DNA of 64,000 nt from Escherichia phage outra, in the sequence record MN850645.1; one strand, 5' to 3'. A program made the position numbers and the translations under genes. Within the stretch, counting starts at the first letter, position 1, and each line of letters begins with the position of its first letter. This document shows, piece by piece, positions 6,577 to 26,323 of the stretch. The notes under the pieces are model-generated. The model saw only the letters and a program-made list of their open reading frames with translations, made no database searches and was not told where the DNA came from.

Positions 6577-6606
6577 AAAGCCTCGCTTCGGCGGGGCTTT
6601 TTATTT
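6577..6606 (+). terminator. rho-independent terminator after the tape measure gene
   Basis: 10 bp stem (one G-U pair) AAAGCCTCGC-TTCG-GCGGGGCTTT followed by TTTTTATTT. Confidence 0.7.
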
Positions 6607-6609
6607 GTC

Positions 6610-6639
6610 TTGACAAAGAGTTGTTTTTCGTGATAAAAT
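6610..6639 (+). promoter_or_regulatory. sigma70-like promoter with extended -10 (TTGACA-18 nt-TGaTAAAAT)
   Basis: Perfect -35 TTGACA at 6610-6615; TGa plus TAAAAT at 6631-6639; about 45 nt upstream of the gene at 6687. Confidence 0.6.
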
Positions 6640-6686
6640 GAGTGATAAGGGAGAATGTTTCTTATCACATTAAGAGGTAAAATTAT

Positions 6687-7397
6687 ATGGCAGCAAACAC
6701 TCCAGAACAACACGTTCAAGCGGTTTATAAAGCGGAACAAGATATAAATTCTACAAAAAACACAAATAACTCTGCCTCTACTGTGAAAGGGGAGAATGGT
6801 TTTTGTATTTTAGCAAGTGTTTACAATAGTGCAAGTGATCAATATATTCAAAACTACCAAGCTATAGTTTTTGATGCTGTTCCAAATATCGGTGTAAAAC
6901 GTCAAGCAGATGTTACTAGCTATCCTGTAGAAAATGGTGCTAATGTATCGGATCACGTTCAAGTTAAGAATAATACTTTCTCTTTATCAGGAATGATTAC
7001 AGAGACACCTGTAAGATTGATGCGAGATATGCTATATAGTGCTGGTGTTAACGGTACTCGTATCAGTCAAGCAATTACTTATTTAGATAAAATATTTGAT
7101 GAAAGACAGCCTATCATCTTAATAACAGAACATAAAGTTTATGAGAATGTTATTTTGAAAGGTATTTCTTATGAATATCAAACAGAATATGCAATGCAAT
7201 TTGACTTGGAATTTGAACAAGTAAGATTAGTTTCTTACGGGGAAACAAATGCTATTGCACTTAAGACAAAACCAAATAAGAATACAGGTGTTAAAAACAA
7301 GAAAGGTACTAGTCCAGATGCTGATTTGGATGCAAGAACAGGGAAAGCAACTGGTACAGAACATCTTAGTGATCACAGTGCAGATGGTAAAAAATAA
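6687..7397 (+). CDS. hypothetical tail/baseplate protein (first gene after tape measure)
   Basis: 236 aa; RBS AAGAGG; preceded by a terminator and a sigma70-like promoter (6610-6639). Confidence 0.4.
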   Translation: MAANTPEQHVQAVYKAEQDINSTKNTNNSASTVKGENGFCILASVYNSASDQYIQNYQAIVFDAVPNIGVKRQADVTSYPVENGANVSDHVQVKNNTFSLSGMITETPVRLMRDMLYSAGVNGTRISQAITYLDKIFDERQPIILITEHKVYENVILKGISYEYQTEYAMQFDLEFEQVRLVSYGETNAIALKTKPNKNTGVKNKKGTSPDADLDARTGKATGTEHLSDHSADGKK

Positions 7398-7408
7398 GGA
7401 GAAAATTT

Positions 7409-7828
7409 TTGGCTATTTCATCTTATTCAAAGATCAGTAGAAGCACATCTAATAGTGGCTACAATGCAGTATTTATTGATCGAAATTTAGGTTATTATTC
7501 TTGGTACTTACCTACAGAACAGTACCCAGACCAAACATATACAGTAACTCTCGATGGAGTAGATTATGATATACGTTTGAGATGGAATACAAGAGATCAA
7601 GCGTGGCAAATGCAATTAGGGTTATCAGGAGACAACCCTAGTGTAACTTTTAAAGTAACCAATGGTTTAGATCTTCTAGAACCATATAAGTATATAGAAT
7701 CTGTGCCGGATGGTCAACTTTATTTGGTAGATACTGTTAAAATAAATGGTAGACCTAATTACTATGACACAGGTGTAGATAAAAGATTTGCTTTGGTTTA
7801 TATCGACGCTCTTCCATATCAAGCATGA
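7409..7828 (+). CDS. hypothetical baseplate protein
   Basis: 139 aa; TTG start 6 nt after AAGGAGAAA; within the baseplate gene run. Confidence 0.4.
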   Translation: MAISSYSKISRSTSNSGYNAVFIDRNLGYYSWYLPTEQYPDQTYTVTLDGVDYDIRLRWNTRDQAWQMQLGLSGDNPSVTFKVTNGLDLLEPYKYIESVPDGQLYLVDTVKINGRPNYYDTGVDKRFALVYIDALPYQA

Positions 7829-7844
7829 TAAAAGGAGTTTTTAA

Positions 7845-8855
7845 ATGGCAGAAGAAAGAAATTACACAAAAGCTCCTGCACCCAATCTAAACAGAGCATA
7901 CAAACTGTTAATAGGTACAGCTACTAATACTAAAGAAAAAAGGACAAAAAATTCCTCTTTCAAATCTACAGTAGACTTAGATACTAAACTAGGGGATGCT
8001 AAAAAATCAACCCCTAATTTGTATGTTATTACGGAGCACCAAATATCTTTCACAATAAGAAAAGATAATAATAAAGATCCTAATCAAGCCGAGATAACTA
8101 TTTATAACCTAAGTGATGATACTGTTAATTATATTAACAAAGGTATTCGTAACAACTTGGCTGTTGCTTTGGCAGTAGGTTATGAAGGTCAAGAGTTAAT
8201 TATGATCTTTAAGGGAACGGTGCAATGGGTGAGTGATACTTTTAACAATACAGACAGACGTACAGTGTTACATTGTCTGGATGGTGGTATTAACATCTCC
8301 GAAGCAAGGACAAGCAGAAGTTATCCGAAAGGTACAAAAGTAAGTAAGGTTGTTAAAGATTTAGTTAAAGATTTAGGTACTACAGAAGGTAATATTCACG
8401 TAGACACAGAGAAAACTTTATCATCTGCAACAGCTATGTGTGGTAACACATCACATTACTTAGAAAGTATCTGTAAAGGTATTGATCATAATGTGTCAAT
8501 ACAAGATGGATCTGTTTACGTAACACCAAGATCACAAATGTCTAGTGCAAGATGCGCATATATTAGTGCAGAAACAGGTTTAATTGGTAGTCCAGAACCT
8601 TTCCACAACGATATTAAACCGACACAAAAAGTAACTAAATCTTCTAAGAAAGCTAAAAAGCCTACTGATGGTGTTAAGTTCAGATGTGAAATGAACGGTG
8701 CTATCTTACCAGAAAAAACTGTTTGGCTCAAGAGTCATAACTATGATGGTGGTTTTAAGGTGGTGTCTGTTGTTCATACAGGAGATAGGGAAGGTAAAGA
8801 CTGGACAACTGAAGTAGAGTCTGTATCTGTATCTGCAATTATTAAGAAGGGCTAG
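7845..8855 (+). CDS. baseplate hub protein candidate (gpD / Mu gp44-like position)
   Basis: 336 aa; RBS AAAAGGAG; lies immediately upstream of the spike gene as in Mu/P2-type baseplate operons; assignment by gene order only. Confidence 0.45.
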   Translation: MAEERNYTKAPAPNLNRAYKLLIGTATNTKEKRTKNSSFKSTVDLDTKLGDAKKSTPNLYVITEHQISFTIRKDNNKDPNQAEITIYNLSDDTVNYINKGIRNNLAVALAVGYEGQELIMIFKGTVQWVSDTFNNTDRRTVLHCLDGGINISEARTSRSYPKGTKVSKVVKDLVKDLGTTEGNIHVDTEKTLSSATAMCGNTSHYLESICKGIDHNVSIQDGSVYVTPRSQMSSARCAYISAETGLIGSPEPFHNDIKPTQKVTKSSKKAKKPTDGVKFRCEMNGAILPEKTVWLKSHNYDGGFKVVSVVHTGDREGKDWTTEVESVSVSAIIKKG

Positions 8856-8857
8856 AA

Positions 8858-9595
8858 ATGGATGCTTTAAATTTTGTAACAGCAATCCGTGGATTAATCA
8901 ACGAACAAGTTGCGGAAGTACATACATCTTTACCTGTAAGGGTAATTGGTGTAGATTATGGATCTAAGACAGTAACTTTAGAATCTATCGTAAAAAATAC
9001 CAGATCTACTGAAGATGAAATAGATTACCCAACATTCCACGATGTTCCTTTTATGGTAAATGGTGGTGGTACAGGTAGAATTTCATTTCCAATTAAAGCA
9101 GGAGATATTGGTGTTGTTGTCTTTTCAGAAAGAGATCCGTCGAATGCTTTCCAGACAGACGGAGATACAGCCAGCAGCGGAACATTAATTCAACCTTGTG
9201 GTTTGTATCCAGCCTGTTTTATTCCTAAGATAGCAACAGCTACAGATTCTTCTGAAGAAGTAGACTCTGAAAAAGTTGTTATCTCAAATAATAAGCAAAC
9301 TTACGCTTCGTTTGATCCTAACGGTAATATATCTGTGTACAACACACAAGGTATGAAAATAGATATGACACCAAACAGTATCGTTCTTACTGATGCAGGA
9401 GGAGGAAAACTTACACTGCAAGGTGGGACTATGACATATAAAGGTGGTACTGTAAATTTAAACGGTTTAACAATCACACCTGACGGTCGTATGAAAGATA
9501 GTGGTGGCATTGGTTTACACACACATACACACCCTGTACGCGGTGTTGAAACTGGTGGTAGCACTGTTACTTCCGACAAACCAAATGGAGGTTAA
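8858..9595 (+). CDS. baseplate central spike protein (gpV / gp5-like)
   Basis: 245 aa; Gly-rich beta-repeat C-terminal half ending in GLHTHTHPV, an HxH metal-binding apex motif known from phage spike tips. Confidence 0.6.
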   Translation: MDALNFVTAIRGLINEQVAEVHTSLPVRVIGVDYGSKTVTLESIVKNTRSTEDEIDYPTFHDVPFMVNGGGTGRISFPIKAGDIGVVVFSERDPSNAFQTDGDTASSGTLIQPCGLYPACFIPKIATATDSSEEVDSEKVVISNNKQTYASFDPNGNISVYNTQGMKIDMTPNSIVLTDAGGGKLTLQGGTMTYKGGTVNLNGLTITPDGRMKDSGGIGLHTHTHPVRGVETGGSTVTSDKPNGG

Positions 9596-9598
9596 CAG

Positions 9599-10234
9599 AT
9601 GGGAATACCATTTGATTTAAAACTTGATGGTTCTAACGATTTAGTAATGGTGGATGGTGATTTAACACTAACCACAACTAAAAGTGAAATTGCAGCACAG
9701 ACGCTTGGAATAACACTTAGAACTTTCCGTGGAGAATGGTTCCTCAACTCTAATTTTGGGGTTCCATATCTGCAAGAGATTATTGGTGTTGCCAAGAAGA
9801 AAGAGATTGTTGATCGCATTTTCTTATCAACTATCGCAAGTAATGTTTATATAGATAATATCAATTCCTACACATCCTCTTATGATAGAGATGATAGGTA
9901 TTACTCAATGAATGTTACTGTTACAGTTGGTGAACAAGTTGTTAGTGCTCTATTCAGTACACAGCCGTCTGAAGAATATATCTATCCAGAAGCTGGTGAT
10001 GATAATGCAGCAATCACTTGTGAAGCATTTGAAATTGTTGAATCTGCAAATAGACTCTATCGCTTTATTAACATTGTTGGTCTTCCTAAAGATACTTATT
10101 CTACTTGGTGGAATGAGTGGTCTAACGAGGCATTGATTGAAAAATACCTTGTTAACGAAGCCAATAAAGGTCTTGCAACCAATTACAACTATGCTATAAC
10201 AGCAACAATGGGAGCTACAAATAATAATGGCTGA
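9599..10234 (+). CDS. baseplate wedge protein, gp25 / GPW-like N-terminal domain
   Basis: N-terminal region (DGDLTLTTTKSEIAAQTLGITLRTFRGEWFLNSNFGVPY) resembles the conserved gp25/W core; carries a ~90 aa C-terminal extension. Confidence 0.55.
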   Translation: MGIPFDLKLDGSNDLVMVDGDLTLTTTKSEIAAQTLGITLRTFRGEWFLNSNFGVPYLQEIIGVAKKKEIVDRIFLSTIASNVYIDNINSYTSSYDRDDRYYSMNVTVTVGEQVVSALFSTQPSEEYIYPEAGDDNAAITCEAFEIVESANRLYRFINIVGLPKDTYSTWWNEWSNEALIEKYLVNEANKGLATNYNYAITATMGATNNNG

Positions 10235-10700
10235 TTTAACTACAATCAAGGTGTCTGATCTACCTGTAACAACATCTGTTTCAGACACAGATTATTTTGT
10301 AACAGATCAATCAGGCATCACTAAGAAAACATCCTTACGTGTTCTTCTTGCGGGTGCTGGTGTTACACGAAATCGTCTTTCTGCAAGGGGTACTGTTACA
10401 AATACCCTAGCTTTAGATATTAGCACGGCAGAGTATTTCTCTGCCACTTTATCTAGTCCAACTTGCAGTATTTCATTTAGTAATGTTCCAGTTACAACTA
10501 ACATTGTTCAAAACTTTACGCTATCCCTACGTCAAGGCAGTGGAGCAAATAAAGTAACGTGGCCTCAATCTGTTAAATGGAGTTTTGGTCGCGCTCCTGT
10601 TTTGAGTTATAAGCAGGGAGCTACAGATATTTTTGAATTTGTTAGTTATGATAATGGAGCTACCTGGATAGGTAGTTTAGTGATGGCAGGAGTGATTTAA
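10227..10700 (+). CDS. hypothetical baseplate protein
   Basis: 157 aa ORF overlapping its neighbours by 8 nt and 1 nt. Confidence 0.4.
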   Translation: MADLTTIKVSDLPVTTSVSDTDYFVTDQSGITKKTSLRVLLAGAGVTRNRLSARGTVTNTLALDISTAEYFSATLSSPTCSISFSNVPVTTNIVQNFTLSLRQGSGANKVTWPQSVKWSFGRAPVLSYKQGATDIFEFVSYDNGATWIGSLVMAGVI

Positions 10701-13576
10701 TGTCAAGAATTAAGCACAGAATTGACAATGTTTTTCAACTGATCGATGGACATATTCAGTTCTTAGATCGTAATACAGGTTTAACTGTAGATCCTACAGT
10801 GCAACACTATGTATTAAACCCACAAAACGTTCTAGCTAATAACAGACACTTTATAAACTGGACTGCTCAAGAAGGGCAACCAAACGGGGATGCTACAACA
10901 GAAGGTCAATCCGTGCTTATTCTTGGTTGCGCTTATGCATACCTAGCTTCCGGCGATACAAAGTATTTAGACTCTGCTAAAAAATATTGGCAAGCCTATA
11001 TAGATTACTTCTTTGGTGGTCAACCTATCCCAGATCCGCCAGCAAAGTATCGCCCTAACTGGATTATTAACGGTAAAGAACCACGTCTTGCACATTATCC
11101 TCTTACAGATGATGGCTACCCTACACACGGAGGTTTTAAGGGTAGCTTAATGACGTGGACTAACGGTAGAACAGTTATTCCTCATGGTGCTCCACATTGG
11201 GGAGAATACCTTGATAAAGCATGGTTTGCTTTTAATGGTAATCTAGGATGGAACTCTGTAAACGCTACAGTATATGCTGTTAATGCAGATGGTACAACAG
11301 ATTGGTCTAAGAAGGGAGATCAATGGGATGTTGATTGGATCATTGATCGTCTAGGACGTAAAGTTGATTGGGATGGAAATATCTTAGAAGAAGGTTTTCC
11401 AACATCTCAATACGGAACAGTTCAACTAAAAAATACTTCTGTAAATGGTACATATAAATTTAACTATGCGACTTGTAACCCTGTTGAACACGGTGGTTAT
11501 TTAATGGAGCGTAACACTATGTGGCATAACAGACCAGTTAACGTTCCGGTAGAAATGGGCTTTCAGGATAATGCGTCAGATGCCGAAACTTGGTGGTGTG
11601 ATGCTAATTACCTGATGTACCAAATTACAGGAGAAAGAAAATATTGGCTATGCTGGCAGTCTTCACTGTTAGTGTGTCAAGATTATTCAAACATTGATAT
11701 GTTTGATAAATTCTTCCGTAAGTCTACATATGCAACTATCCCGTTTACAGATGGCATCTCTTACGATTATTCGTATCCATCTACAGCAATACCTAAATAT
11801 TCAAGAGATACTTTAGGTTATATTGTTATTAGACAAGATGTTGCTGCTCAAACAACATTAGAACAGCAATCTATTTGGTTTAAAGTTGATCAGAACTCTA
11901 AGTTACGAGTTCAGTTCCAAGGCGTAGATGACGCAGGACATGGTATTCTTTTCCGTCCAGAATTGGAGCTAAGTAAGACCAAAGATGAAAATAACACAGT
12001 AACTTACCGTTGTGGCTTACCATTAGGTACAGCTAATATGACAAGCATGGATATTCCATTATCCAGCTTTATGAGAAGTACCCCTCCGAATGGTGGAACA
12101 TATATTATCGCAGATCCGCGAATTATTGTTGACTGGGGTGACAATACTGTGGTACAATTTAAGTATGTAACAGGTATTGCTGGAACTAATAATGACCAGA
12201 TTGTTACTGCATCAATGGATACGGATGGTGGTGTCACTGTTGGTTTTTGGTTAACTCCTACATCAAAAGCTAATGTTAAGTCTATTACATATAGAACATA
12301 TGAAGATGACTTTAACATGACTATCACGGATGCTCAAGGTTGGAGATGGTGGGCTATGCTGCCTAAAACGCAAGGAGCATGGAGTACGAAGACTTTATCA
12401 GCTTCTGATTTTCAGTTAAGTGCTTACCAGCCTAATCATCCAGATACAGATCCTAAACCTTCAGCAATAAATCTTACTGCGGTAGATCAGGTAAATTTAG
12501 TTCTTGATACGGCTCCTGTCAATGGTTTAACAGGAACAATAGATTTCTATTGTATTAATGATGTACCTGAAAGATATTCGTCATCTTCTGGTGATGATTA
12601 TACCATGTACTTCCGTATTACTGTACAGGCTTCAAGTCCTCATACTGCTAAGTTAGGTGATTGTACTATTATTGACTATAAGTTAAATAGTCTTAATTAC
12701 ACACCAGGAATAATTCCATTCTCTAATATCAGTGACCCAAACACTGCATTATACGATGGATGGCGTGGTATTCCATACCCAGGATACCAGTATCCTTCCT
12801 TATACTGCTTCGCAGGTAGGGATATTGATTGGACACGTTTAAACAACAGTATTGATTTCTTGTATGATGCTCAAATGTGGTTTTATAACACGTTTGATCC
12901 TGTGATGCCTGGGCCTATGGCACAAGCATATGTGTGGGATCGTTGGGATGCAAGAAAATACGGTGAACCTAATACGTTTACAATGAAACACTGGAATGAA
13001 AAAGCGTGGGATGGTTATGAAGCTCGTGCATTCTACTGTGCTTGTCATGCTGTATACGAACTTGTACAAAGAGGAGAAACACCTCCTGAAAAACTAGTAA
13101 CTGTTTGTAAAAATTGGATCAACTACCTTAAATGGTTCCAAGACAATAATGATGGAAGAACACCAACTATCTTTAACCCAGATGGTACAGTTCTTGCGCC
13201 TATAGATGACTTTACTAGTCATATGTCTGCACTGTTTATGGCGGGTTGTTCAATCATGGGCTTGGCAGGTTATGATTCACAAATTCCAAACATTGGTATT
13301 GTAGCAGACAGATGTTTTGATCTGATTCAGCAAAACTATATTGTGCTCTCCCCTAACCATCCAATGAATGGTTGCTGGAGTGTTGCACCGCGTCCAGATT
13401 CAGATAACGGAATGTTCTTTGGTTTCCATGCTGGAGAACTATTACGTGGTTTTGGTTTATATGCTTTATATCGTAAACTAAATCCTCAAAACGCCTTACC
13501 AATTTTGGACAATAGTAACATACCGACACTAACTGTTCTAACTATGAATGATATTAGTGTTGATGTAACCAAATAA
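10700..13576 (+). CDS. large baseplate wedge / tail structural protein (958 aa), possibly carbohydrate-interacting
   Basis: Start coupled to the previous stop (TAATG); Trp/Tyr-rich; inserted between the W-like and J-like genes; function not recognisable by eye. Confidence 0.45.
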   Translation: MSRIKHRIDNVFQLIDGHIQFLDRNTGLTVDPTVQHYVLNPQNVLANNRHFINWTAQEGQPNGDATTEGQSVLILGCAYAYLASGDTKYLDSAKKYWQAYIDYFFGGQPIPDPPAKYRPNWIINGKEPRLAHYPLTDDGYPTHGGFKGSLMTWTNGRTVIPHGAPHWGEYLDKAWFAFNGNLGWNSVNATVYAVNADGTTDWSKKGDQWDVDWIIDRLGRKVDWDGNILEEGFPTSQYGTVQLKNTSVNGTYKFNYATCNPVEHGGYLMERNTMWHNRPVNVPVEMGFQDNASDAETWWCDANYLMYQITGERKYWLCWQSSLLVCQDYSNIDMFDKFFRKSTYATIPFTDGISYDYSYPSTAIPKYSRDTLGYIVIRQDVAAQTTLEQQSIWFKVDQNSKLRVQFQGVDDAGHGILFRPELELSKTKDENNTVTYRCGLPLGTANMTSMDIPLSSFMRSTPPNGGTYIIADPRIIVDWGDNTVVQFKYVTGIAGTNNDQIVTASMDTDGGVTVGFWLTPTSKANVKSITYRTYEDDFNMTITDAQGWRWWAMLPKTQGAWSTKTLSASDFQLSAYQPNHPDTDPKPSAINLTAVDQVNLVLDTAPVNGLTGTIDFYCINDVPERYSSSSGDDYTMYFRITVQASSPHTAKLGDCTIIDYKLNSLNYTPGIIPFSNISDPNTALYDGWRGIPYPGYQYPSLYCFAGRDIDWTRLNNSIDFLYDAQMWFYNTFDPVMPGPMAQAYVWDRWDARKYGEPNTFTMKHWNEKAWDGYEARAFYCACHAVYELVQRGETPPEKLVTVCKNWINYLKWFQDNNDGRTPTIFNPDGTVLAPIDDFTSHMSALFMAGCSIMGLAGYDSQIPNIGIVADRCFDLIQQNYIVLSPNHPMNGCWSVAPRPDSDNGMFFGFHAGELLRGFGLYALYRKLNPQNALPILDNSNIPTLTVLTMNDISVDVTK

Positions 13577-13584
13577 GGAAAATA

Positions 13585-15660
13585 ATGAAACAGGCTATTT
13601 TTACTGTAACTCGAAATACGAGAGTAAATGCCAGTTCATTCAGCTATAAGACCGTCGATGGAACGGCGGTCGCTGGTAGAGATTATGTAGCTAAACAGGG
13701 AACAGTAACGTTCCCTTCTGATGCAGATTCTGCTACTGTAGTGGTTGATGTATATGAACGTCCGGCAAACTCTTTAGATCTTTATTTTACTCTTGAGATT
13801 ACTAGCATAAGTCAAAATAACATGATGATCAACGAAGAAATTCGTTGTGTTATTACGACTGATCAATCGAATACAACCCCGCTAACTTGGCCTGTTGTGA
13901 AGTCTAGAATGTTTGATCCTAAGTTTTGGACAATAGATTCTCAAGCAACAGAAAGTTGTTCTATTATCTCTAATGGTGATTCTTTCACAGCAAGAATGGT
14001 TAATAGGACAGTGGCTGGTCTTGCTGGGATTATTTGGTCAACTTACGATAAATATGATCACAAAGGATTAGGCTACCAAGAACATTCTGACTTAAGTAAA
14101 GAGAAACTTTGGTTTAAAATGGAACTTAGTCAAGGTGTTCCTGGATTAAAAGAAGAAAAATTAATGCCATCCTTAACAGTGACACTGAAGGATGAAACAG
14201 TTCATTATGTATCTCTAAACTTTTATGCAGAAGAAGTTTCAGAGGACGGTAAAACAGCAATAATCAAATTAGATTTCTCAAATTTAAAATCTGGGCCAGA
14301 AAATGATATTGTTGTTGACACTACACAGATAGATAACATGTTCTTCTCCTTGATTTCCGCAAGGTATCAAGAAATTGAAGATGTTATACCAGTAGACAAT
14401 ATAGATCTTTCCTTTAAGTTTACCATACTAGAGCCTGATACTGGTTACAGTATGATGAATATGGGTAATTTAAATGTTCCGGCGCACACCATAAGAATGT
14501 GTACATCTTATGATGATATGTATAACCTAACACCAGAGCGAGTTATTTCTAACACCTATAGATTAGGTTATAGAGATATGATTAACCATTATAATGGTAT
14601 GTCACACTATTATCAATTTAGTTGGGATGCCGGATCTAATAAATGGGCTTTGAATAGAACAGAATATTTAAACCCAGCAACAGAAGCCTGGTTTGATAAT
14701 TTCCACGCTAATGCAAAAGCTATGGGCTACACAGTAATGAACTCCTTAAGTTTTGAACTTATGAGTACAGTGTGTCCTGTAGAATGGGTACAACATACTT
14801 GGAATGATGATCTGGCTGCTACAGGTTATGAGCCACCAAGTTATGTTTTATCTCCTTCAATTGATGAAGGGATGAATTATTTACAAGGTGTAATAAATAA
14901 GATAGCTTCTATATCCGCTGCCAATGATCTTCCTGTTATTATTCAGGTTGGTGAACCGTGGTGGTGGTATAACACAGCTACCAATCTACCGTGTATCTAT
15001 GATTATACAACCAAAGTTGCATTTAATAATGAAACTGGGTTATATGCACAAGATGTTGGTACAGTTAAGAATTATAAAACTGGTACACCATATGATGAAT
15101 ATTATGCATTCCTATCTAAAACATTAGGACTGCGTGTTGCTAAATTTGCAACAGATACTAAATTAGCCTATCCTGGAGCTAAAGTTACATTATTACCATT
15201 TGTGCCATCCATTTTAGGTAACGGTATGATGGAGTTTGTTAACTTCCCTAAAGATCATTATATCCCAGAAAACTTTGACTTTTATTGTTCAGAATGTTAT
15301 GACTGGTTGTTGGAAGGTCAGATGGAAAGATCTTTCGACGCTATCAAAATACCTAATGAGCAACTAGGTTTTAGTTATGATAAGATACATTATCTTGCAG
15401 GGTTTGTTCCAGATGCAACTCTAGCACCATTATATGGCTTTGATCCTGAATCAGACTACAGAACATATTTGTGGAAAATGATTATAGGTAATATTGTATT
15501 GAATGACCAGAAGTTTGTTGGTTTGTATCAATACATATGGGCTTATCCACAAATTATGGCAGATTCATTAACTGTTCTTAATTCAAAATCCCAAGTTTTT
15601 TATATGGGTAACGTACCTCTGAATGTCTTTTTACAAGATACAGTATATGTTTCTTCTTAA
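13585..15660 (+). CDS. large baseplate / tail structural protein (691 aa)
   Basis: RBS AAGGAAAA; long ORF in the baseplate operon; no motif recognised. Confidence 0.45.
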   Translation: MKQAIFTVTRNTRVNASSFSYKTVDGTAVAGRDYVAKQGTVTFPSDADSATVVVDVYERPANSLDLYFTLEITSISQNNMMINEEIRCVITTDQSNTTPLTWPVVKSRMFDPKFWTIDSQATESCSIISNGDSFTARMVNRTVAGLAGIIWSTYDKYDHKGLGYQEHSDLSKEKLWFKMELSQGVPGLKEEKLMPSLTVTLKDETVHYVSLNFYAEEVSEDGKTAIIKLDFSNLKSGPENDIVVDTTQIDNMFFSLISARYQEIEDVIPVDNIDLSFKFTILEPDTGYSMMNMGNLNVPAHTIRMCTSYDDMYNLTPERVISNTYRLGYRDMINHYNGMSHYYQFSWDAGSNKWALNRTEYLNPATEAWFDNFHANAKAMGYTVMNSLSFELMSTVCPVEWVQHTWNDDLAATGYEPPSYVLSPSIDEGMNYLQGVINKIASISAANDLPVIIQVGEPWWWYNTATNLPCIYDYTTKVAFNNETGLYAQDVGTVKNYKTGTPYDEYYAFLSKTLGLRVAKFATDTKLAYPGAKVTLLPFVPSILGNGMMEFVNFPKDHYIPENFDFYCSECYDWLLEGQMERSFDAIKIPNEQLGFSYDKIHYLAGFVPDATLAPLYGFDPESDYRTYLWKMIIGNIVLNDQKFVGLYQYIWAYPQIMADSLTVLNSKSQVFYMGNVPLNVFLQDTVYVSS

Positions 15661-15671
15661 GGATCTCTAGT

Positions 15672-15917
15672 ATGAGAAAATTTTTAATAGGTATGTTTTG
15701 TACATATCCTGATAATAAAGTCAGTTCTACTAAAGTTTGGAATGCTATTGGTATGATTGTTATGTCCAGTATGTTTATTTATTTGGGAATTGATAAAGAA
15801 ATTCCTGAATGGATGGGCTGGGCTTTTGTTTTTATGATCACACCATCCAGACTAATGAAGAATTTAATAGATTTACGTTGGGGCAGATCACCTGCCCCTG
15901 ATAAGGAGGATAACTAA
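15672..15917 (+). CDS. small membrane protein (two predicted TM helices)
   Basis: 81 aa with two hydrophobic stretches (IGMIVMSSMFIYLGI and WMGWAFVFMITP); its stop overlaps the J-like start (TAATG). Confidence 0.4.
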   Translation: MRKFLIGMFCTYPDNKVSSTKVWNAIGMIVMSSMFIYLGIDKEIPEWMGWAFVFMITPSRLMKNLIDLRWGRSPAPDKEDN

Positions 15918-17404
15918 TGGCAGATTATGGTTTAACAGATGCTGGTTTTGTCATTCCAACGTTTGATGATATTCTAAATAATTATATGACAGCATTGAAA
16001 AACACTTTCGGTGCAGATACAGCTACATCTGAAGATACTGTCTTTGGTCAACTGTTTCGTATTATTGCATATACAGATTACACCCTTTGGGAAGGTATGC
16101 AAGGTGTTTACAATACCCAAACCTTAGATGGTGCAGAAGGTATTTACCTTGATGAAATTTTCTCTAAGAGAGGTTTTTATCGTAAGGCAGCTTCTGCTGG
16201 TAGTGGTTATGCTTATGTTAAATCTAACAATAAGGCAGCTTGGACTTATGAACTAAGCACCGATGTTTATTTTAATGCCGATAACGATTTGACATATTAT
16301 GTCAGTGCACCAACAATGTTGAATGCTAAGATTGGAGCATATACCATTTCTAAAGCAAACGCAACAGCTTCTGGTGAAACTTCTATTACTTTCTACATTC
16401 AAAGTGCTATTGATGGTGGTCTTAACAGTAAAACACTAAGTCCTAGCAATACAAACTTTATTTTAGATCTCACGAATTTCATTAAAGCTAACGTATCAAC
16501 AACAGATCGTGCTTTAGTATGGAATGATGCCAGTAATGTTTACATGGGTTATAATCCAGAAGATAATGTTAACCCAATAGGTCTAGTAACACCAGTGAAA
16601 TTTTACGCATCTATTGCAATTGGTACAAAATGGAGTGAAATCCCAGTTACGTGTTCAGACGTTGGTTATAATCCAGTAGGTACAGAAAGTATTACAGGTA
16701 TTTCTTCAACGTTTACAGGCTTTTTAGATACAGGTAACTTCTATCCATTCTCTCCAGGTACGGATGTTGAAACAGATGCAGAATTCCGTTCTCGTTTCAA
16801 TGATAATATGGATGAAGCTAATGCTGCTACTCGTGCTGCTATTGTTAAAGCTCTGCTACTGACAGATGGTGTGACAAAGGTTAAGATTTATGATAACCCT
16901 ACACTACATGATCAGGAACATGCTCCAGCTATGACATTCCAGACTATTGTGTATGGCGGTACAGCAGAAGAAGTTGCACAGGTTATTTATAATACTAAGC
17001 CTATTAACACCTTAACCTATGGTACAACAGCAATTACTATCGTAACAGAAGATGGCGGTCAAGAAGTAATTCGTTTTTCTCCTGGTGACAATGCTGAATA
17101 TTCACTTAAACTAGTATATCAAACTGGCAATGGTAGTGTATTAAGTACAACAGAAAGAGAAAATATTGTTTCTGCTCTTTCAAATCTACAGGCTTATTTT
17201 GAGTTAGGTTCAACAGTAACTAACGATCAGATAAAAGGTGTAATTTATTCTGCACTTGCGTTCGGACGCTTGACTTCTCTCCGTGTTTATGTTAAACTTA
17301 ATACTGAGGATGACAGTAAATATAATGAGGGAGATATCACTCCAGCGTACAATGTTGTACCATCCTTTGACCTTGATAATATTTCCTACGAGTACGGAGT
17401 CTAA
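15917..17404 (+). CDS. baseplate J-like protein
   Basis: 495 aa; RBS AAGGAGGA; size and N-terminal region resemble the baseplate J (gpJ / Mu gp47 / T4 gp6-like) family; followed by I-like, fiber and assembly genes. Confidence 0.7.
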   Translation: MADYGLTDAGFVIPTFDDILNNYMTALKNTFGADTATSEDTVFGQLFRIIAYTDYTLWEGMQGVYNTQTLDGAEGIYLDEIFSKRGFYRKAASAGSGYAYVKSNNKAAWTYELSTDVYFNADNDLTYYVSAPTMLNAKIGAYTISKANATASGETSITFYIQSAIDGGLNSKTLSPSNTNFILDLTNFIKANVSTTDRALVWNDASNVYMGYNPEDNVNPIGLVTPVKFYASIAIGTKWSEIPVTCSDVGYNPVGTESITGISSTFTGFLDTGNFYPFSPGTDVETDAEFRSRFNDNMDEANAATRAAIVKALLLTDGVTKVKIYDNPTLHDQEHAPAMTFQTIVYGGTAEEVAQVIYNTKPINTLTYGTTAITIVTEDGGQEVIRFSPGDNAEYSLKLVYQTGNGSVLSTTERENIVSALSNLQAYFELGSTVTNDQIKGVIYSALAFGRLTSLRVYVKLNTEDDSKYNEGDITPAYNVVPSFDLDNISYEYGV

Positions 17405-17406
17405 AA

Positions 17407-18036
17407 ATGGCAGTGAGTGTTGACCATGTGACAACGTGGGATAGTATCAATGAAGATGTTAAAGACCTACTGATTGAAGATTTTAAATCTTCTCCGAACA
17501 TTGTCAAACTACTCTATATCATTTCTAGCGAAAAACAAAAGATAGATCAGGCAATGATCTATCTTGCCAAACACCGCTTAATCTCTACTGCAACTGGTAA
17601 GTATTTAGATCTTATTGGTGAAGAGATGGGGATGGAAAGAAATGGTGCTACAGATGAAGAGTATCGTACAATATTAAAAATCAGGGCTTATCGTGTTGCG
17701 TCTTCTGGTACGCGAGATGATATCATTGATATGTTCGCTCGTTTTACAGGAACAGAAAAAGAAACGATTAATACATACGTTGGATTAAATAAAACATTCG
17801 ACGTATTCTTTTATAATTTGTGTCTACAATCCGATCAGGCAGTAGCACAGTTACTTAACGTTTTCCCGATCCTAAGTAGTTATCGCTTAGGTGCGAAAGC
17901 GGGTGCAGCCTTTGGTTTCACTTCCTATTATGCCACAACTCCACCTCATGGTATAGGTGGTTTAGGTTCTCTTTACACAGAGGCTGAAGGAGATGATACA
18001 GGGCGAATGACTATGCTGATAGCTCAAATAGAATAA
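17407..18036 (+). CDS. baseplate / tail protein I-like
   Basis: 209 aa gene directly after the J-like gene and before the tail fiber, as in P2/Mu operons. Confidence 0.5.
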   Translation: MAVSVDHVTTWDSINEDVKDLLIEDFKSSPNIVKLLYIISSEKQKIDQAMIYLAKHRLISTATGKYLDLIGEEMGMERNGATDEEYRTILKIRAYRVASSGTRDDIIDMFARFTGTEKETINTYVGLNKTFDVFFYNLCLQSDQAVAQLLNVFPILSSYRLGAKAGAAFGFTSYYATTPPHGIGGLGSLYTEAEGDDTGRMTMLIAQIE

Positions 18037-18049
18037 GGAGTTACTCTTA

Positions 18050-19033
18050 ATGGCAAAGCCACAATACTACCCTGACTGGGCGACACAAACAGTAACCCTC
18101 CCAGGAACGGGAAACACAAACAAGATTAGACCAAAAGAAACCATCCGTAATGTTGGTATGGACTTTGGTCAGATTATGACTTGTGAAGAAATGAACTGGA
18201 TCTTAAACAATATTGGGTCTTGGATTCGCTATATGCAAGATGAATTCTTCCCAACATTGCCTACTACATATCTTCCTATAGTCGGTACTAAAATTACAAT
18301 GGCAGGTGATGCTACAGGTGAAGTCACATGGAATGGTAATGCTGCTGTAACATTATCTATTCAAGTAGTAGATAACAGCCATAATCACTTATCAGCTAAC
18401 ATTACAGACGCAACATCAAACCAAGTTGTAGGGAATGTCCTTGTTAAGCGTGATAATGGTGGTGCTATCTATGCAGGTGATATTTACACTTGTGGTACAG
18501 GTGCTACAGATCCTGCAACATTATTTTTTAGAAACTACAACGGACAAACAGTAGGTAATATGTCCTCTGAACCAGGTGCAGGTGGTCAACTCTATATTTA
18601 TAGAATGAACCCATCAACTGGAGGAACATCTTGTGCAGTCCGTTTATATGATGCAGGTTATGTTTTAATAGACAACCCTCGTTCTAATTCTGGTCAAGAT
18701 ACTGGTAATGGTAATGCTCTTGTAAGATTAGACTATCTTAACTCCAGACTAAACTCATTGCAAAGCACACTGCAAAATAATATTAACAACGTTAATAGTA
18801 ACTTGCAAGGCCAAATTAATAGCATTAACAATAGAGTTTCTTCTGTTGTGTCTGCTATCCGTCTTGGAACACGTATCCAAGCTGGTGTATCTGAGTCTCG
18901 TTTCTATGCTGGTCACGTGATCACAGGTTGGGGTTTTGGTGACAAGAAAGAACTTCGTGGTGCTTGGTATTGGTCAGCCCCGCTACAATATTATATTAAT
19001 GGTAGCTGGATAACAGTAACCAACGTTTCGTAA
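18050..19033 (+). CDS. tail fiber protein
   Basis: 327 aa; RBS AAGGAG; Gly/Asn/Thr-rich beta-type sequence; followed by a tail fiber assembly gene. Confidence 0.6.
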   Translation: MAKPQYYPDWATQTVTLPGTGNTNKIRPKETIRNVGMDFGQIMTCEEMNWILNNIGSWIRYMQDEFFPTLPTTYLPIVGTKITMAGDATGEVTWNGNAAVTLSIQVVDNSHNHLSANITDATSNQVVGNVLVKRDNGGAIYAGDIYTCGTGATDPATLFFRNYNGQTVGNMSSEPGAGGQLYIYRMNPSTGGTSCAVRLYDAGYVLIDNPRSNSGQDTGNGNALVRLDYLNSRLNSLQSTLQNNINNVNSNLQGQINSINNRVSSVVSAIRLGTRIQAGVSESRFYAGHVITGWGFGDKKELRGAWYWSAPLQYYINGSWITVTNVS

Positions 19034-19042
19034 GGAGAGTCT

Positions 19043-19594
19043 ATGAAAAAAGACGTTATTTTTACAGGTTTTGAATTGTATGAACCAGAATTAACAGAAG
19101 AAAATATTCTTTATCTTTCTGTTGGTGGTGGTTTTTTGCAAGACAAAGATGGTAACGACTGGTATCAGCTTCAAAAAACTTTGATGGTAGAATATCCCGA
19201 CGCTTATTTTATTACCTTAGATGATAATAATATTGTACGTGGTGCTACTAAAGATGTTACTACCTATTTCCCTGCCGGACAATCTATTTTAGTTACATAT
19301 AATGTACCAGATAAAATAGAAGATGAAAGTAACATTGGCTCTTGGCAATATGTTGAAGGTAAGTTTGTTCCTCACAATAATCTTGCTATTGAAGATGCTA
19401 CTCTTAAGTTAGAAAAGGAGCTAACTTGGGCTACGAATCAAGTGTCTGCGATTCAAGATTTAGAGGAATTACAAGGTTTATCTGAAGAACAAAAAGATTG
19501 GTTAGGAAAAGTTAAACTCTATCGTGCAACATTAATTCAAATTAACGTTGAAGATGCACCTAATATAACTTGGCCTACAAGACCTAAGAAATAG
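19043..19594 (+). CDS. tail fiber assembly protein (Tfa / gpG-like)
   Basis: 183 aa; C-terminal LYRATLIQINVEDAPNITWPTRP resembles the conserved Tfa-family C-terminal signature; located after the fiber gene. Confidence 0.7.
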   Translation: MKKDVIFTGFELYEPELTEENILYLSVGGGFLQDKDGNDWYQLQKTLMVEYPDAYFITLDDNNIVRGATKDVTTYFPAGQSILVTYNVPDKIEDESNIGSWQYVEGKFVPHNNLAIEDATLKLEKELTWATNQVSAIQDLEELQGLSEEQKDWLGKVKLYRATLIQINVEDAPNITWPTRPKK

Positions 19595-19603
19595 GGGCAA
19601 TGT

Positions 19604-19945
19604 ATGGAGCTAACAGAAGTATGGGATATCGCTAAAGAGGCGATTATCCCTCTTATTGGCGTAATCTGGGTGGTCTTCAAACAGAAGATAGATGATATGG
19701 CAAGTGATTTGGATAAAATGGAAGACAAATACCGCGAACTAGAAAAGAAGTTGGTGTTTGTTGAATCCACTTATGCTACCAAAGCAGAACTTGCTCAAAT
19801 GCTTAACCAGATCAACTCTACATTAATGGCAAATAATACTGCCTTAGAACAGAAGATTGAAAAAATAATGGATTTAAAAAATGCTCCTGTTCAATTAATG
19901 CTAGAGGAGATTACAAAGCGCACACAAAGTAAGGACAAAAATTAA
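19604..19945 (+). CDS. hypothetical protein with N-terminal TM segment and coiled coil
   Basis: 113 aa; hydrophobic IIPLIGVIWVVF then a heptad-rich charged region; stop overlaps the tailspike start (TAATG). Confidence 0.4.
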   Translation: MELTEVWDIAKEAIIPLIGVIWVVFKQKIDDMASDLDKMEDKYRELEKKLVFVESTYATKAELAQMLNQINSTLMANNTALEQKIEKIMDLKNAPVQLMLEEITKRTQSKDKN

Positions 19946-22359
19946 TGGCGAATTTTCCAACATATCCTGCTACGACACTAGAACAAGGTGTTGATCTGGT
20001 TATATTCTCGTCTAACCAGATGCATGATGTTATTAATGGAGATGCTACAGCAACTGTAGAAACCGAAACAGGTTTAATACCTACACTGCGTAAAGCACTT
20101 GTTGATAACTTCTTCTTTAAGAGTCCTGTTGCTTGGTCAGCAGGATCAACTGAAACTGTATTTAACCAGTTACGTTATTTTGAAAACGGTATCTTGAGTG
20201 GGTACTATTATGCCCCATCTGCCACTACTGCTAACCCTGTACCTATGCAGGGCACACCTGTAGGGGATAGTAACTGGACTCTGTACGCTCTTAAAACTGA
20301 ACAGTTAGCTTCAGATGTGTATCCTTGGTATTTTAAAGGTGCTACAGGATATGAAACAGAAATCAGTCCTCCTTATATCTTTGATAATGCTATTGTCACC
20401 ATTAACGGTGTAATTCAGATTCAAGGTGAAGCATTTACTATCAAAGATAGTAAAATTATTCTGGCAGAACCATTAGGTTTAGATCCGTCTACTGGTCTAC
20501 CTAACAAATTGTTTGCTTTTATTGGTAAAACAACAGCCTCTACTTCTTACGTAGAGAAAAACCTTTTGTCATCCACCACTGGTGCAGCAATGGTTGGTCT
20601 TCCATCTGGAGGCAACCTGTTACAAGCTCAATACTTTGTAACGCCTGAGCAGTTTGGTGCAATTGGTGATGGAGTTACCGATGATACTCAAGCAATTTTA
20701 AAAACCATTACTTTCGCTAACACGAATAACATTCAAGTACGTGCAGATAAGAATTATAGATTCACAAGCTCAATTGCTATGTCTGGTATTCGTTGGTATG
20801 GTGGTACATTCACTGGTAACGGTGGAACAATGATTTCTACTGTGTCCTGTTGGATGGAAAACGTTCGCTTTGAAAAATGTTATGTTAAGATGTTAGGTGG
20901 TGATTGCCGATTCTATCGTAATATCTTCTCCAACGCAACATCTACAGCAGCATTCTTAATGCAAGCAATGACAAGTGAAGGTACGTTGGACTTCAGTTAC
21001 AACGAAATGTATGGTTGTAAATATGCGATCCTGCAACAAGGTACTGGAGAAGTAATGACCTACGGGCGTTACTCTAACAACTATATTCACGATATTAAAG
21101 GTGATGCTATTGAACTTAACGTAGTTCAAAAACACTACACTGAAGGTTTGATTATCGAGAATAACCACATTGCTAACGTAGATGCTTCTGGACAAGGGGC
21201 AAACTGGGGTATTGGTATTGGTGTAGCAGGTAGTGGCCCATATGGTGTTGATGTTCCTGACTCACAATATGTACGTAATTTCAGTATCGTTGGGAATAGG
21301 GTTTACAATTGCCGTCAATGTCTACACGTTGAAATGGGTAAAAACTTCACAATACGTGATAACGAAGTTTATCCTAACACAGCAGTTTCAACAGGTACAG
21401 GTTTAACTACTTGTGGTGTTGCATTATACGGATGCCAAGATTTTGAAGTTGATGGTTTAACTGGTTATCTGCTTAATGATCCGTCTGTTTCAACACGCAT
21501 GGTCTTTATTGACTGGGGTGTTAACAGTGGAAGATATGCGGGGCCACCAATTAACTTTACAATTAAGAATTTGGATATTCCAGAATCTTCAATTGAGATT
21601 GCAACGGCTGGATCAGATGCCTGGGAAAACTCTACAATTGTTAGTAACATCAATTGTAATGTTTTTAAATGGCGTGGGCTACCATCTAGCTCTACCTTTA
21701 ATAATATTCGTTGCCGTAGTATTGACTTTATTGGTCAACACGGAAGCGGAGAAGGAAGTGGTGGCGGTTTCTATACTCGCAGCCAATTCACGTATATGAA
21801 GTGGGTAGGATGTACAGCACTTAGCGGAGATGAAACAACAGTTTCTTTTGCTAAAATCTACACTGATCGTTGCGATCAGGTTGGAAATAACTTTGGTGTT
21901 CCAACTGCTGTTGATGGTACAGGTCATCGTGGGCCAGTTTTAACTACTATTTCTGAACAATATTTTACAGCTTATGATGAATTCCCAGGTGGGCGTGAAT
22001 TCCCTACTGGAACAGTTATTCATTGTGCAAGCGGTAAAAAACATGTTGTTACAGTAGGTGGTGCTTTCTTTAGTGCCAACGAGAAAATAAAAGCAACTGT
22101 TACAGGTCAAACCTATCTACAGTCTAATGCTTTAAACTGGGCTAGTAATGGCTACGCTAAAGCAGCAGGTACTAAGATTGTTATTCCAGGTGCAGGTGCA
22201 AATGGCGGCGATCTTGTGACAACTATAGCACGTGCTACATACGTGACAAATAGTTTGTACACAATAGATATTGCAGATCCAATTGTAACACCTACAGCAG
22301 AGAATACACAAATTAAAGCTCTGAATCCTGTTACTTTTGTTACTGTCAATAATGCTTAA
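19945..22359 (+). CDS. tailspike protein with pectate-lyase-like beta-helix (putative polysaccharide depolymerase)
   Basis: 804 aa; PEQFGAIGDGVTDDTQAILKTI matches the N-terminal signature of pectate-lyase-fold depolymerases; Gly/Asn-rich parallel beta-helix-type sequence. Confidence 0.65.
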   Translation: MANFPTYPATTLEQGVDLVIFSSNQMHDVINGDATATVETETGLIPTLRKALVDNFFFKSPVAWSAGSTETVFNQLRYFENGILSGYYYAPSATTANPVPMQGTPVGDSNWTLYALKTEQLASDVYPWYFKGATGYETEISPPYIFDNAIVTINGVIQIQGEAFTIKDSKIILAEPLGLDPSTGLPNKLFAFIGKTTASTSYVEKNLLSSTTGAAMVGLPSGGNLLQAQYFVTPEQFGAIGDGVTDDTQAILKTITFANTNNIQVRADKNYRFTSSIAMSGIRWYGGTFTGNGGTMISTVSCWMENVRFEKCYVKMLGGDCRFYRNIFSNATSTAAFLMQAMTSEGTLDFSYNEMYGCKYAILQQGTGEVMTYGRYSNNYIHDIKGDAIELNVVQKHYTEGLIIENNHIANVDASGQGANWGIGIGVAGSGPYGVDVPDSQYVRNFSIVGNRVYNCRQCLHVEMGKNFTIRDNEVYPNTAVSTGTGLTTCGVALYGCQDFEVDGLTGYLLNDPSVSTRMVFIDWGVNSGRYAGPPINFTIKNLDIPESSIEIATAGSDAWENSTIVSNINCNVFKWRGLPSSSTFNNIRCRSIDFIGQHGSGEGSGGGFYTRSQFTYMKWVGCTALSGDETTVSFAKIYTDRCDQVGNNFGVPTAVDGTGHRGPVLTTISEQYFTAYDEFPGGREFPTGTVIHCASGKKHVVTVGGAFFSANEKIKATVTGQTYLQSNALNWASNGYAKAAGTKIVIPGAGANGGDLVTTIARATYVTNSLYTIDIADPIVTPTAENTQIKALNPVTFVTVNNA

Positions 22360-22363
22360 TTAA

Positions 22364-22383
22364 AAAGGGGCGAAAGCCCCTTT
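22364..22383 (+). terminator. terminator hairpin after the tailspike gene
   Basis: 8 bp stem AAAGGGGC-GAAA-GCCCCTTT, 5 nt after the stop; short U-tract. Confidence 0.5.
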
Positions 22384-22400
22384 ATAAAAGGAGTAGTAAA

Positions 22401-24362: not shown

Positions 24363-24365
24363 TCA

Positions 24366-24390
24366 AAGCCCCTTCGGGGGCTTATTGTTT
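24366..24390 (+). terminator. rho-independent terminator after the collagen-like fiber gene
   Basis: Stem AAGCCCC-TTCG-GGGGCTT followed by ATTGTTT. Confidence 0.6.
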
Positions 24391-26291: not shown

Positions 26292-26313
26292 AAAAGGAGC
26301 CAATAGGCTCCTT
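26292..26313. terminator. bidirectional rho-independent terminator between convergent modules
   Basis: Hairpin AAAGGAGCC-AAT-AGGCTCCTTT with T-rich flanks on both strands; lies between the last + gene (ends 26288) and the last - gene (ends 26324). Confidence 0.65.
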
Positions 26314-26323
26314 TTCTTTTATC

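Follow-up and report, generated by a model that had tools for sequence, protein, structure and literature searches.

Phage phi92 reportedly adsorbs by means of a multivalent apparatus, described by Schwarzer et al. in 2012 (J Virol 86:10384). Since 2012 two of its proteins, gp141 and gp142, have been counted among the glycosidase-type tail fibres of this "multivalent adsorption apparatus" (PMC5380687). The subject of this analysis is the corresponding locus of Escherichia phage outra, four open reading frames (ORFs) at 10227-15917 of a 64,000-nt stretch of sequence record MN850645.1 (the window, whose numbering is used throughout unless another locus is named), which lie between a gp25/W-like and a J-like baseplate gene and code for proteins of 157, 958, 691 and 81 amino acids.

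A cryo-electron microscopy (cryo-EM) study of August 2026 built the phi92 baseplate from gp134-gp139, gp145 and gp146, with gp139 as the sheath initiator and a wedge made of gp145 and gp146 alone, as a heterotrimer (PMC13450770). Fibres I and III attach to the C-terminal domain of gp145; fibre III is gp147, gp143 is only the tip of the L-shaped fibre I, and the arm of fibre I, on top of the gp145 C-terminal domain, as well as all of fibre II, were left without an assigned protein (PMC13450770). Its screen was restricted to predictions of fibre shape, and gp141, gp142 and gp144 appear nowhere in the study (PMC13450770).

A sequence-only reading of the window had taken the four ORFs for an insertion into the baseplate operon, with a wedge-extension or carbohydrate-binding role for the 958-residue protein. 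The data presented here support the carbohydrate-related part of this interpretation, but neither the wedge extension nor an insertion that would be unusual for the lineage. The block has been described before, as the host-recognition genes of phi92-like E. coli phages, and is ordinary for that group. We consider it probable that its products form the proximal part of a phi92-like multivalent host-adsorption apparatus, expressed with the baseplate genes in one late operon.

The gene block between the W-like and J-like genes

Comparison with sequenced genomes placed outra in Justusliebigvirus, as a phi92-like myophage. Positions 9599-17404 showed 98-99% identity at 100% coverage to more than 50 sequenced Justusliebigvirus phages (ESCO32 being the best match, at 99.1%), and a sheath gene at 1827-3233 indicated a contractile tail. 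The records of Paula, PaulScherrer and phi92 matched gene by gene, in the colinear order gp139-gp140-gp141-gp142-(gp143)-gp144-gp145. All four ORFs claimed between the W-like and J-like genes were found in the six-frame ORF list at exactly the coordinates given for them; each product has hundreds of homologs, and the four ORFs are real genes. They lie on the + strand and correspond one to one to phi92 genes: the 157-residue protein to gp140 (10227-10700; PHROG 9017, tail fiber protein), the 958-residue protein to gp141 (10700-13576), the 691-residue protein to gp142 (13585-15660) and the 81-residue protein to gp144 (15672-15917; PHROG 1322, membrane protein, E 5e-27). The gene for the phi92 endosialidase gp143 is absent from outra, and ESCO32 likewise lacks it (PMC10269720). 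Given this correspondence and the earlier listing of gp141 and gp142, the observation that drew attention to the locus is real, but the arrangement had already been published.

The boundary genes followed the same correspondence. Upstream, the 211-residue gp139 ortholog (9599-10234, + strand) is the gp25/W-like sheath initiator, as judged from PHROG 120 (baseplate wedge subunit, E 6e-22), from the Paula and phi92 annotation and from 25% identity to rV5 gp44 (E 5e-15). Downstream are the 495-residue gp145 ortholog (15917-17404, + strand), a J/gp6-like wedge protein by Pfam Baseplate_J and PHROG 6, and the 209-residue gp146 ortholog (17407-18036, + strand), an I/TssG-like second wedge protein matching PHROG 4056 (baseplate protein) and, weakly, DUF2612. 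The genes for gp139 and gp140 share 8 nt, and TAATG stop/start overlaps were found at the gp140/gp141 and gp144/gp145 junctions. No strong terminator was found from 6600 to 24366, the only strong terminator-like hairpins near the region being at 6577-6600, 24366-24383 and 26292-26315; the four genes therefore belong to one late operon with the baseplate and fibre genes. The first of these hairpins (10 bp stem and T-run, within 6577-6639) lies directly 3' of the tape-measure gene and is followed by the best sigma-70-like promoter match of the region (11/12), which marks the start of the baseplate/fibre transcription unit.

The sequence-only reading had started from the rule that W and J are normally adjacent in Mu/P2-type operons. 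This premise holds, since the two genes were adjacent in the P2-like (L006) and HP1-like (L010) prophages that we fetched, and the four genes of outra are indeed extra cargo between them. The cargo is nevertheless no peculiarity of this phage; it is a conserved arrangement throughout the rV5/phi92 supergroup. In rV5, seven genes separate W and J, and the first two, directly after the true W-like gp44, are gp43 and gp42, the orthologs of gp140 and gp141. An alternative assignment, with MaxBurger bas54_0029 as the W gene and rV5-like phages devoid of gp140 and gp141, was rejected on the basis of tblastn and the rV5 record. Between its W-like and J-like genes rV5 also carries gp40-gp37 (L017, 4693-10100), annotated as distal tail protein, tail protein and central tail fibre J; they resemble genes of the siphovirus PY54 and constitute a siphovirus-type tail-tip module within a myovirus baseplate operon. 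About 23 GenBank "Campylobacter phage" records (H9-H12, H40, H43; MG0656xx) were 98.7% identical to E. coli Justusliebigvirus/Vequintavirus genomes, and by this measure appear to be coliphage genomes that were mislabelled or arose by contamination.

The gp140 C-terminal domain and its partner gp141

Two parts could be distinguished in gp140. Its first 46 residues (1-46) resemble the tailspike-type anchor peptide common to the exchangeable tailspikes of the gp143 slot and to rV5 gp41, with 39% identity to the N-terminus of phi92 gp143 (E 3e-8) and a match to that of rV5 gp41 (E 1e-6). The remainder is a conserved C-terminal domain (residues ~50-157, nt 10374-10697, + strand), and these ~100 residues are also found C-terminally in many small PHROG "tail fiber" proteins. 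Wherever gp141 was a separate gene in the contexts checked (L007, L008, L010, L011, L012, rV5, ISAO8, BP63 and an Erwinia phage), the ORF directly upstream ended in the gp140 C-terminal domain, in myo-, sipho- and podoviruses alike, while its N-terminal part varied with the type of tail.

The upstream partners illustrate this variation. A siphovirus-like Enterobacter prophage has a 560-residue protein with a lambda tail-tube-like (TTP-like) domain (match to the gp140 C-terminal domain, E 4e-30), whereas the rV5 partner gp43 has a Tail_spike_N domain (E 1e-28) and gp38 of the T7-like Yersinia phage ISAO8 has the Pfam T7 tail-fibre N-terminal domain (E 3e-16). The domain also matched partners of 244 residues in an Erwinia Kolesnikvirus ("tail fiber protein" FDI03_gp041, E 7e-26), 480 residues in a Gluconobacter prophage (E 1e-23), 173 residues in a Pseudomonas HP1-like prophage, where the gene follows gpI (E 4e-22), 207 residues in the Rosemountvirus BP63 (BP63_28, E 1e-17), 255 residues in an SU10-like podovirus (E 5e-17) and 194 residues in a Spongiibacter prophage (E 4e-14). 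In the phage collection the domain occurred in 523 records and gp141 in 531, with nearly identical taxon counts. A P2-like prophage had the gp141 body fused directly to a gpI (Tail_P2_I) domain, and there the gp140 domain was absent. The simplest reading of these patterns is that gp140 would be an adaptor, composed of a variable plug for the virion and a constant domain that binds gp141, and that gp141 would be the conserved payload.

Homologs of gp141 were numerous and conserved to an unusual degree, in phages and prophages of Enterobacter, Pseudomonas, Stenotrophomonas, Psychrosphaera, Spongiibacter and Gluconobacter; they were 44-57% identical over ~96% of the length, with many invariant polar and aromatic residues. 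The protein had been described as aromatic-rich, which is true only mildly: W, Y and F make up 13.5% of its residues and W alone 3.4%, and the total equals that of the 691-residue protein. No match to the gp141 sequence was found in Pfam, NCBIfam or the PDB. The AlphaFold2 model was confident (pLDDT 87.6, pTM 0.83, from an alignment of 66 sequences) and showed a discontinuous (alpha/alpha)6 barrel of about eleven long helices in three blocks (residues 7-104, 293-330 and 699-927), interrupted by beta-rich, beta-sandwich inserts at ~120-290 and ~350-660. The inserts matched CBM11 and CBM22 in Foldseek, and phage "tail fiber" proteins of the same fold were found in BFVD. The best structural matches of the barrel were GH8 endoglucanases such as E. 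coli BcsZ, Komagataeibacter CMCax and Listeria PssZ. The earlier reading of the large proteins as carbohydrate-related tail proteins is supported.

Three invariant acidic residues are candidates for catalysis. E68 (nt 10901-10903) lies in the motif ATTEGQS, which compares with TTSEGQS in BcsZ; D294 (nt 11579-11581) lies in NASDAETW, against SASDGDVW; and D750 (nt 12947-12949) lies in RWDARKY, against SYDAIRVY. By eye and by helix order they resemble BcsZ E55, D116 and D243; the mutant constructs in PDB entries 3qxq (E to Q) and 7f82 (D to A) mark catalytic residues of BcsZ, and E68 and D294 are placed at the N-termini of barrel helices topologically equivalent to those of BcsZ. Because all sequence-based tests were negative, gp141 is, on its model, GH8-like in fold and not a member of GH8, and it is possibly an active enzyme.

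Several further observations concern gp141 and its gene. Between Justusliebigvirus and Seunavirus gp141 is 77-78% identical (86% similarity in the phi92 record), compared with ~49% identity for the gp140 C-terminal domain and 35-49% similarity for other baseplate proteins, which points to lateral exchange or to constraint of unusual strength. A docking tail for the Calx-beta domain of gp142 was considered in the last 30, disordered residues of gp141, an idea that was dropped as the Seunavirus and rV5 orthologs have no such tail. In a widespread siphovirus-like prophage of Enterobacter and E. coli (L008, 8319-12823) the gp141 homolog is encoded between the 560-residue protein and the tail chaperone/tape-measure genes, and a gp141-type enzyme may decorate the tail tube there. 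Cyclic di-GMP enzyme genes were seen near gp141-type genes, with a GGDEF gene in the Gluconobacter locus (L011, 11305-12459) and an EAL gene at the edge of the Enterobacter locus (L008, 11-685); a GGDEF/EAL annotation also lies beneath one gp140-domain match (H170). This proximity may be coincidence, though synthesis of the N4 glycan receptor (NGR) is cyclic di-GMP dependent.

gp142 and the exchangeable tailspike slot

NGR is a glycan made by NfrB/WecB, on which N4, the Vequintavirinae and phi92-like phages depend (PMC8669472; PMC11990801), a dependence shown genetically on wecB/nfrB for the phi92-like phages (PMC8669472). The phi92 gp142 has been named an NGR receptor-binding protein, with the conserved GMSHY motif of NGR-targeting phages (bioRxiv 10.64898/2026.04.02.716166). 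The gp142 of outra contains GMSHY at residues 338-342 (nt 14596-14610; N-G-M-S-H-Y at 337-342). Pfam identified Calx-beta (PF03160, residues 4-91, 1e-9, above the cut-off), NCTSP_N (PF23844, residues 109-272, 5.5e-21, 75.1 bits against a cut-off of 27) and TIM-barrel_NCTSP (PF23845, residues 299-660, 3.7e-81, 273.3 bits against 27), and the PDB gave N4 gp64 (1.4e-28) and gp65 (4.7e-12) in 9lc0/9yf4 (chains M and I of 9lc0). By these profile matches the 691-residue protein belongs to the N4 gp65/gp64 "non-contractile sheath" family and is a candidate NGR binder. Mass spectrometry found its rV5 ortholog gp34, which is 42% identical from end to end, in virions (4 peptides, 18 spectra, 10.3% coverage). 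Within the block, the role of gp142 as a virion receptor-binding protein for a conserved surface glycan has the best support.

The last gene of the operon (24402-26288) encodes another module related to N4 gp65. Its product, of 628 residues, has Ig-like repeats; in the C-terminal part, residues 452-626 align (E 2e-40) with positions 910-1086 of a PHROG named "tail sheath and receptor binding protein", of the N4 gp65 type. The Paula gene at the same position codes for 939 residues.

The genes for gp141 and gp142 are adjacent in Justusliebigvirus, Phapecoctavirus and Seunavirus, and in an SU10-like podovirus a single chain of 1557 residues consists of a gp141-like body followed by NCTSP_N and a TIM barrel. 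A physical association of the two proteins is plausible from this gene arrangement, but not general.

Directly after the gp142 gene, outra has an empty tailspike slot. We mapped the junction by blastn of window positions 15400-15950 against phi92 and PaulScherrer and by alignment of gp142: 36 nt (15641-15676, + strand) stand for ~2.9 kb of phi92, that is for the last ~30 codons of gp142 and the gp143 gene. The slot proteins of phi92 and PaulScherrer have a common N-terminus of 54 residues (91% identity) and then diverge completely. Two forms of gp142 exist, one of 691 residues, as in the window, and one of 719 residues with ~30 extra residues before the C-terminus. The long form occurred in 81 records, and in 5/5 of those with gp144 coordinates at hand, 1.9-2.7 kb of tailspike gene follows; at least 15 genomes are colinear with the window, and none of these was among the 60 matches listed for the extension. 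These forms and slots were seen at window 15560-15676, L004 9153-12095 and L002 16043-18384. The slot tailspike may dock on this extension, which is correlated with an occupied slot.

Weighing the readings and comparison with described systems

In the model we favour, the gp140 anchor peptide, being of the same type as that of the exchangeable tailspikes, would plug into the baseplate periphery, and the C-terminal domain would hold gp141. The latter would be a conserved glycan-active payload, with its GH8-like barrel flanked by CBM-like beta domains; from its model, it probably retains the catalytic acid and would cleave or grip a surface beta-glycan. Next to gp141 or on it, gp142, related to the N4 gp65/gp64 receptor-binding module, would recognise NGR, leading to bypass of the O-antigen; in relatives with the longer C-terminus it would also carry the exchangeable tailspike (phi92 gp143) that outra lacks. 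Once the glycan is bound or processed, the short fibre gp147 would engage the lipopolysaccharide core, and contraction would follow. We infer only that the globular gp141 and gp142, with gp140, are candidates for the fibre I arm or fibre II densities of phi92. A more ambitious version, which we hold to be doubtful, combines three propositions: that the gp140 C-terminal domain and gp141 form a portable cassette mounting an active GH8-fold enzyme on contractile, long non-contractile and short tails, that gp140-gp141-gp142 are the fibre I arm or fibre II of phi92, and that the glycan bound by gp142, be it NGR or another conserved beta-glycan (cellulose, for example), is depolymerised by gp141.

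A number of points weigh against this model. The AlphaFold2 model of gp140 was of low confidence (pLDDT 42.8, 20 homologs), and the contact with gp141 is proposed from gene patterns. With 6800 clusters, the family of the gp140 C-terminal domain is very large, and tandem repeats of the domain occur; it may be a general knob or lectin and not a dedicated dock for gp141. For gp141, no GH8 signal was obtained at the sequence level with Pfam, using the full protein and barrel-only constructs of 8 members, with the family profile against the PDB, or with hhalign against BcsZ; the match of its catalytic motifs to those of BcsZ was made by eye, and the third motif is weak. Homologs of gp141 also occur in hosts without known NGR, which means that the substrate is not fixed as NGR. 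The rV5 ortholog of gp142 is encoded after the I-like gene, away from the gp141 ortholog, and gp142 may therefore dock on the wedge independently. The rV5 virion mass spectrometry table contains gp34, gp37 and gp41, and not gp42 or gp43; the presence of gp140, gp141 and gp144 in virions has no direct support in this analysis, and the "structural protein" labels of the Paula record could not be traced to their source.

Could the two large proteins instead be structural wedge extensions of the T4 gp7/gp10 type, which enlarge the wedge and take no part in host recognition? Their genes do lie between wedge and initiator genes and are translationally coupled to them, and the upstream partner in the Gluconobacter prophage has a weak Gp10_C match (E 0.012, below the cut-off). 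Neither protein, however, matched a wedge family in Pfam or PHROG or showed fold or profile similarity to T4 gp7/gp10. The structure prediction of 10700-13576 that the sequence-only reading had recommended for a comparison with wedge proteins gave the confident GH8-like model described above, with no wedge protein among its structural matches. The gp141 family is found in siphovirus-like prophages and in T7-like and SU10-like podoviruses, whose tails have no wedge, and gp145 and gp146 account fully for that of phi92. We thus regard wedge extension as extremely improbable. The view that gp141 is a catalytically dead, glycan-binding scaffold (a lectin or fibre arm built on the six-hairpin barrel) and gp140 an independent short fibre whose C-terminal knob binds the receptor, the two co-occurring because they are co-assembled on one appendage, draws on several of the points just listed, namely the missing GH8 signal and the wide spread and tandem repetition of the gp140 domain, and C-terminal extensions and fusions on gp141 homologs also suggest a scaffold. 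It is nonetheless unlikely: E68, D294, D750 and many polar residues are invariant at 44-57% identity across distant hosts, and in ISAO8 the T7 fibre N-domain is joined to the gp140 C-terminal domain and followed by a gp141 homolog, gp38 and this homolog being the only fibre-like genes seen in the tail gene block, as fits an adaptor with a functional head.

For gp144, the small hydrophobic protein that had rightly been singled out as the odd one of the block, the alternatives are of another kind. It had been called a two-TM protein; hydropathy clearly showed one transmembrane (TM) helix at residues 22-40 (Kyte-Doolittle 2.05), but the second segment (47-58) is short and weak, reaching only ~1.1, and an amphipathic C-terminus of mixed charge follows. 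No functional match was found in Pfam (E up to 10), NCBIfam, PADLOC or the PDB. Homologs were present in 371 phage records (tblastn), all of rV5-like lineages, a distribution that differs from that of gp141; distant members are 30-36% identical and keep S18, T20, K21, F35, E46, W47, L61, R69 and G71. In every case the gene was part of the fibre cluster: phi92-like and Phapecoctavirus phages have it before the J-like gene, and Vequinta-, Seuna- and Plateaulakevirus have it downstream of the I-like gene, directly before a gene for a fibre or tailspike. It is not adjacent to the endolysin gene. The gp149 ortholog (19604-19945, 113 residues), which has an N-terminal hydrophobic segment and then a coiled-coil-like stretch, adds another small protein of membrane type to the fibre cluster; it matches a PHROG "lipoprotein" and, weakly, an Rz-like spanin (E 5e-4), and three gp149-like genes stand in a row in Seunavirus GAP31 (L014, 8144-9213).

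Being small and hydrophobic with a charged C-terminus, and belonging to a phage group without a classic lysis cassette, gp144 might be a class II holin, or time lysis in another way, with its gene at a distance from that of the endolysin; the spanin-like match of neighbouring gp149 fits such a role, and T4 too has its holin gene t beside tail-fibre genes. An 81-residue protein is among the holin-like candidates of the BME3 paper (PMC12210895). We find this quite unlikely in view of the weak second segment, of the conservation of polar motifs outside the TM helix (S-x-T-K, E-W and L-R-W-G) among such distant homologs, and of the constant position inside the fibre cluster, immediately before a fibre or J gene. 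Related genomes also have better candidates for holin and spanins at other loci: rV5 gp129 and, in CB7, a 65-residue two-TM ORF overlapping the SleB-like lysin gene have been proposed as holins, and spanins map beside the terminase gene (PMC7344957). The conserved position and these candidates argue against a chance misplacement, although a mis-sited lysis or exclusion gene, as had been suggested, is possible. Superinfection exclusion or receptor masking by a moron-type membrane protein, comparable to T5 Llp, cor and lom in fibre regions, appears very unlikely. PHROG 1322 belongs to the category "moron, auxiliary metabolic gene and host takeover" and the gene adjoins receptor-binding genes, beside which exclusion genes are often found. 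Unlike sporadic morons, however, gp144 is a core gene, conserved across the supergroup about as well as the baseplate proteins; it belongs to the late operon, overlaps the start of the J gene and has no PADLOC match. On its conservation we regard gp144 as a lineage-conserved membrane accessory protein for which holin, exclusion and assembly functions are all possible. In the favoured model it would be a small inner-membrane protein made alongside the fibres and most likely an accessory factor, acting at the membrane in the assembly of fibres or baseplates, in exclusion or in lysis timing, and not a wedge or fibre subunit.

Collectively, nothing special has to be invoked for what had been flagged as an insertion: phi92-like phages normally carry this receptor-binding block, and it has been published. 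The modest new material is the fold of gp141, the obligate pairing of the gp140 domain with gp141 across tail types, the correlation of the gp142 extension with an occupied slot and the suggestion concerning the fibre densities; the adaptor-payload pairing and the link to the phi92 densities are the leads to follow. That the domain and gp141 travel together while the adaptor N-terminus is swapped provides a simple rule for annotating and engineering receptor-binding modules. As gp141 and gp142 are not fibre-shaped and were not considered in the newest phi92 structure, they are obvious candidates for the densities in question.

The pairing has parallels in adaptors of the K1E/K1-5/SP6 gp37 type and in the branched tailspikes of CBA120 and G7C (Tail_spike_N), where a small virion-anchored protein carries an enzyme subunit, as proposed for gp140; these systems and the phi92-like phages have conserved anchor peptides followed by swapped catalytic heads. 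They differ in that the payload proposed for gp140 is one highly conserved (alpha/alpha)6-barrel protein and not a set of variable beta-helix trimers, and in that the coupling would be made by the gp140 C-terminal domain, which has no Pfam family. Compared by eye, GH8 enzymes such as BcsZ, CMCax and PssZ and the gp141 model have the motifs T-[ST]-E-G-Q-S and A-S-D-[GA]-[DE]-x-W at topologically equivalent helix starts, whereas gp141 has no detectable sequence homology to them and carries ~550 residues of beta-domain insertions. With N4 gp65/gp64, gp142 has in common the N-domain, the TIM barrel and the GMSHY segment, and both phage groups need NGR; unlike in N4, the module would sit on a contractile-tail baseplate and form no sheath; it begins with Calx-beta and lacks the domains D9-D10 of gp65, which gate the N4 tail plug. 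The W-like, J-like and I-like genes of outra keep the order of the P2/Mu V-W-J-I-H operon, but in the rV5/phi92 supergroup W and J are 5.7-9.4 kb apart, with receptor-binding genes between them; among the prophages, a P2-like one has the gp141 family fused to gpI, and in an HP1-like one the pair of gp140 domain and gp141 follows gpI. The closest system is the gp140-gp144 block of phi92 itself, with the same genes in the same order at 98-99% identity, from which outra differs by the missing gp143 endosialidase and by a gp142 without the ~30-residue C-terminal extension, as do ESCO32, Paula and EmilieFrey.

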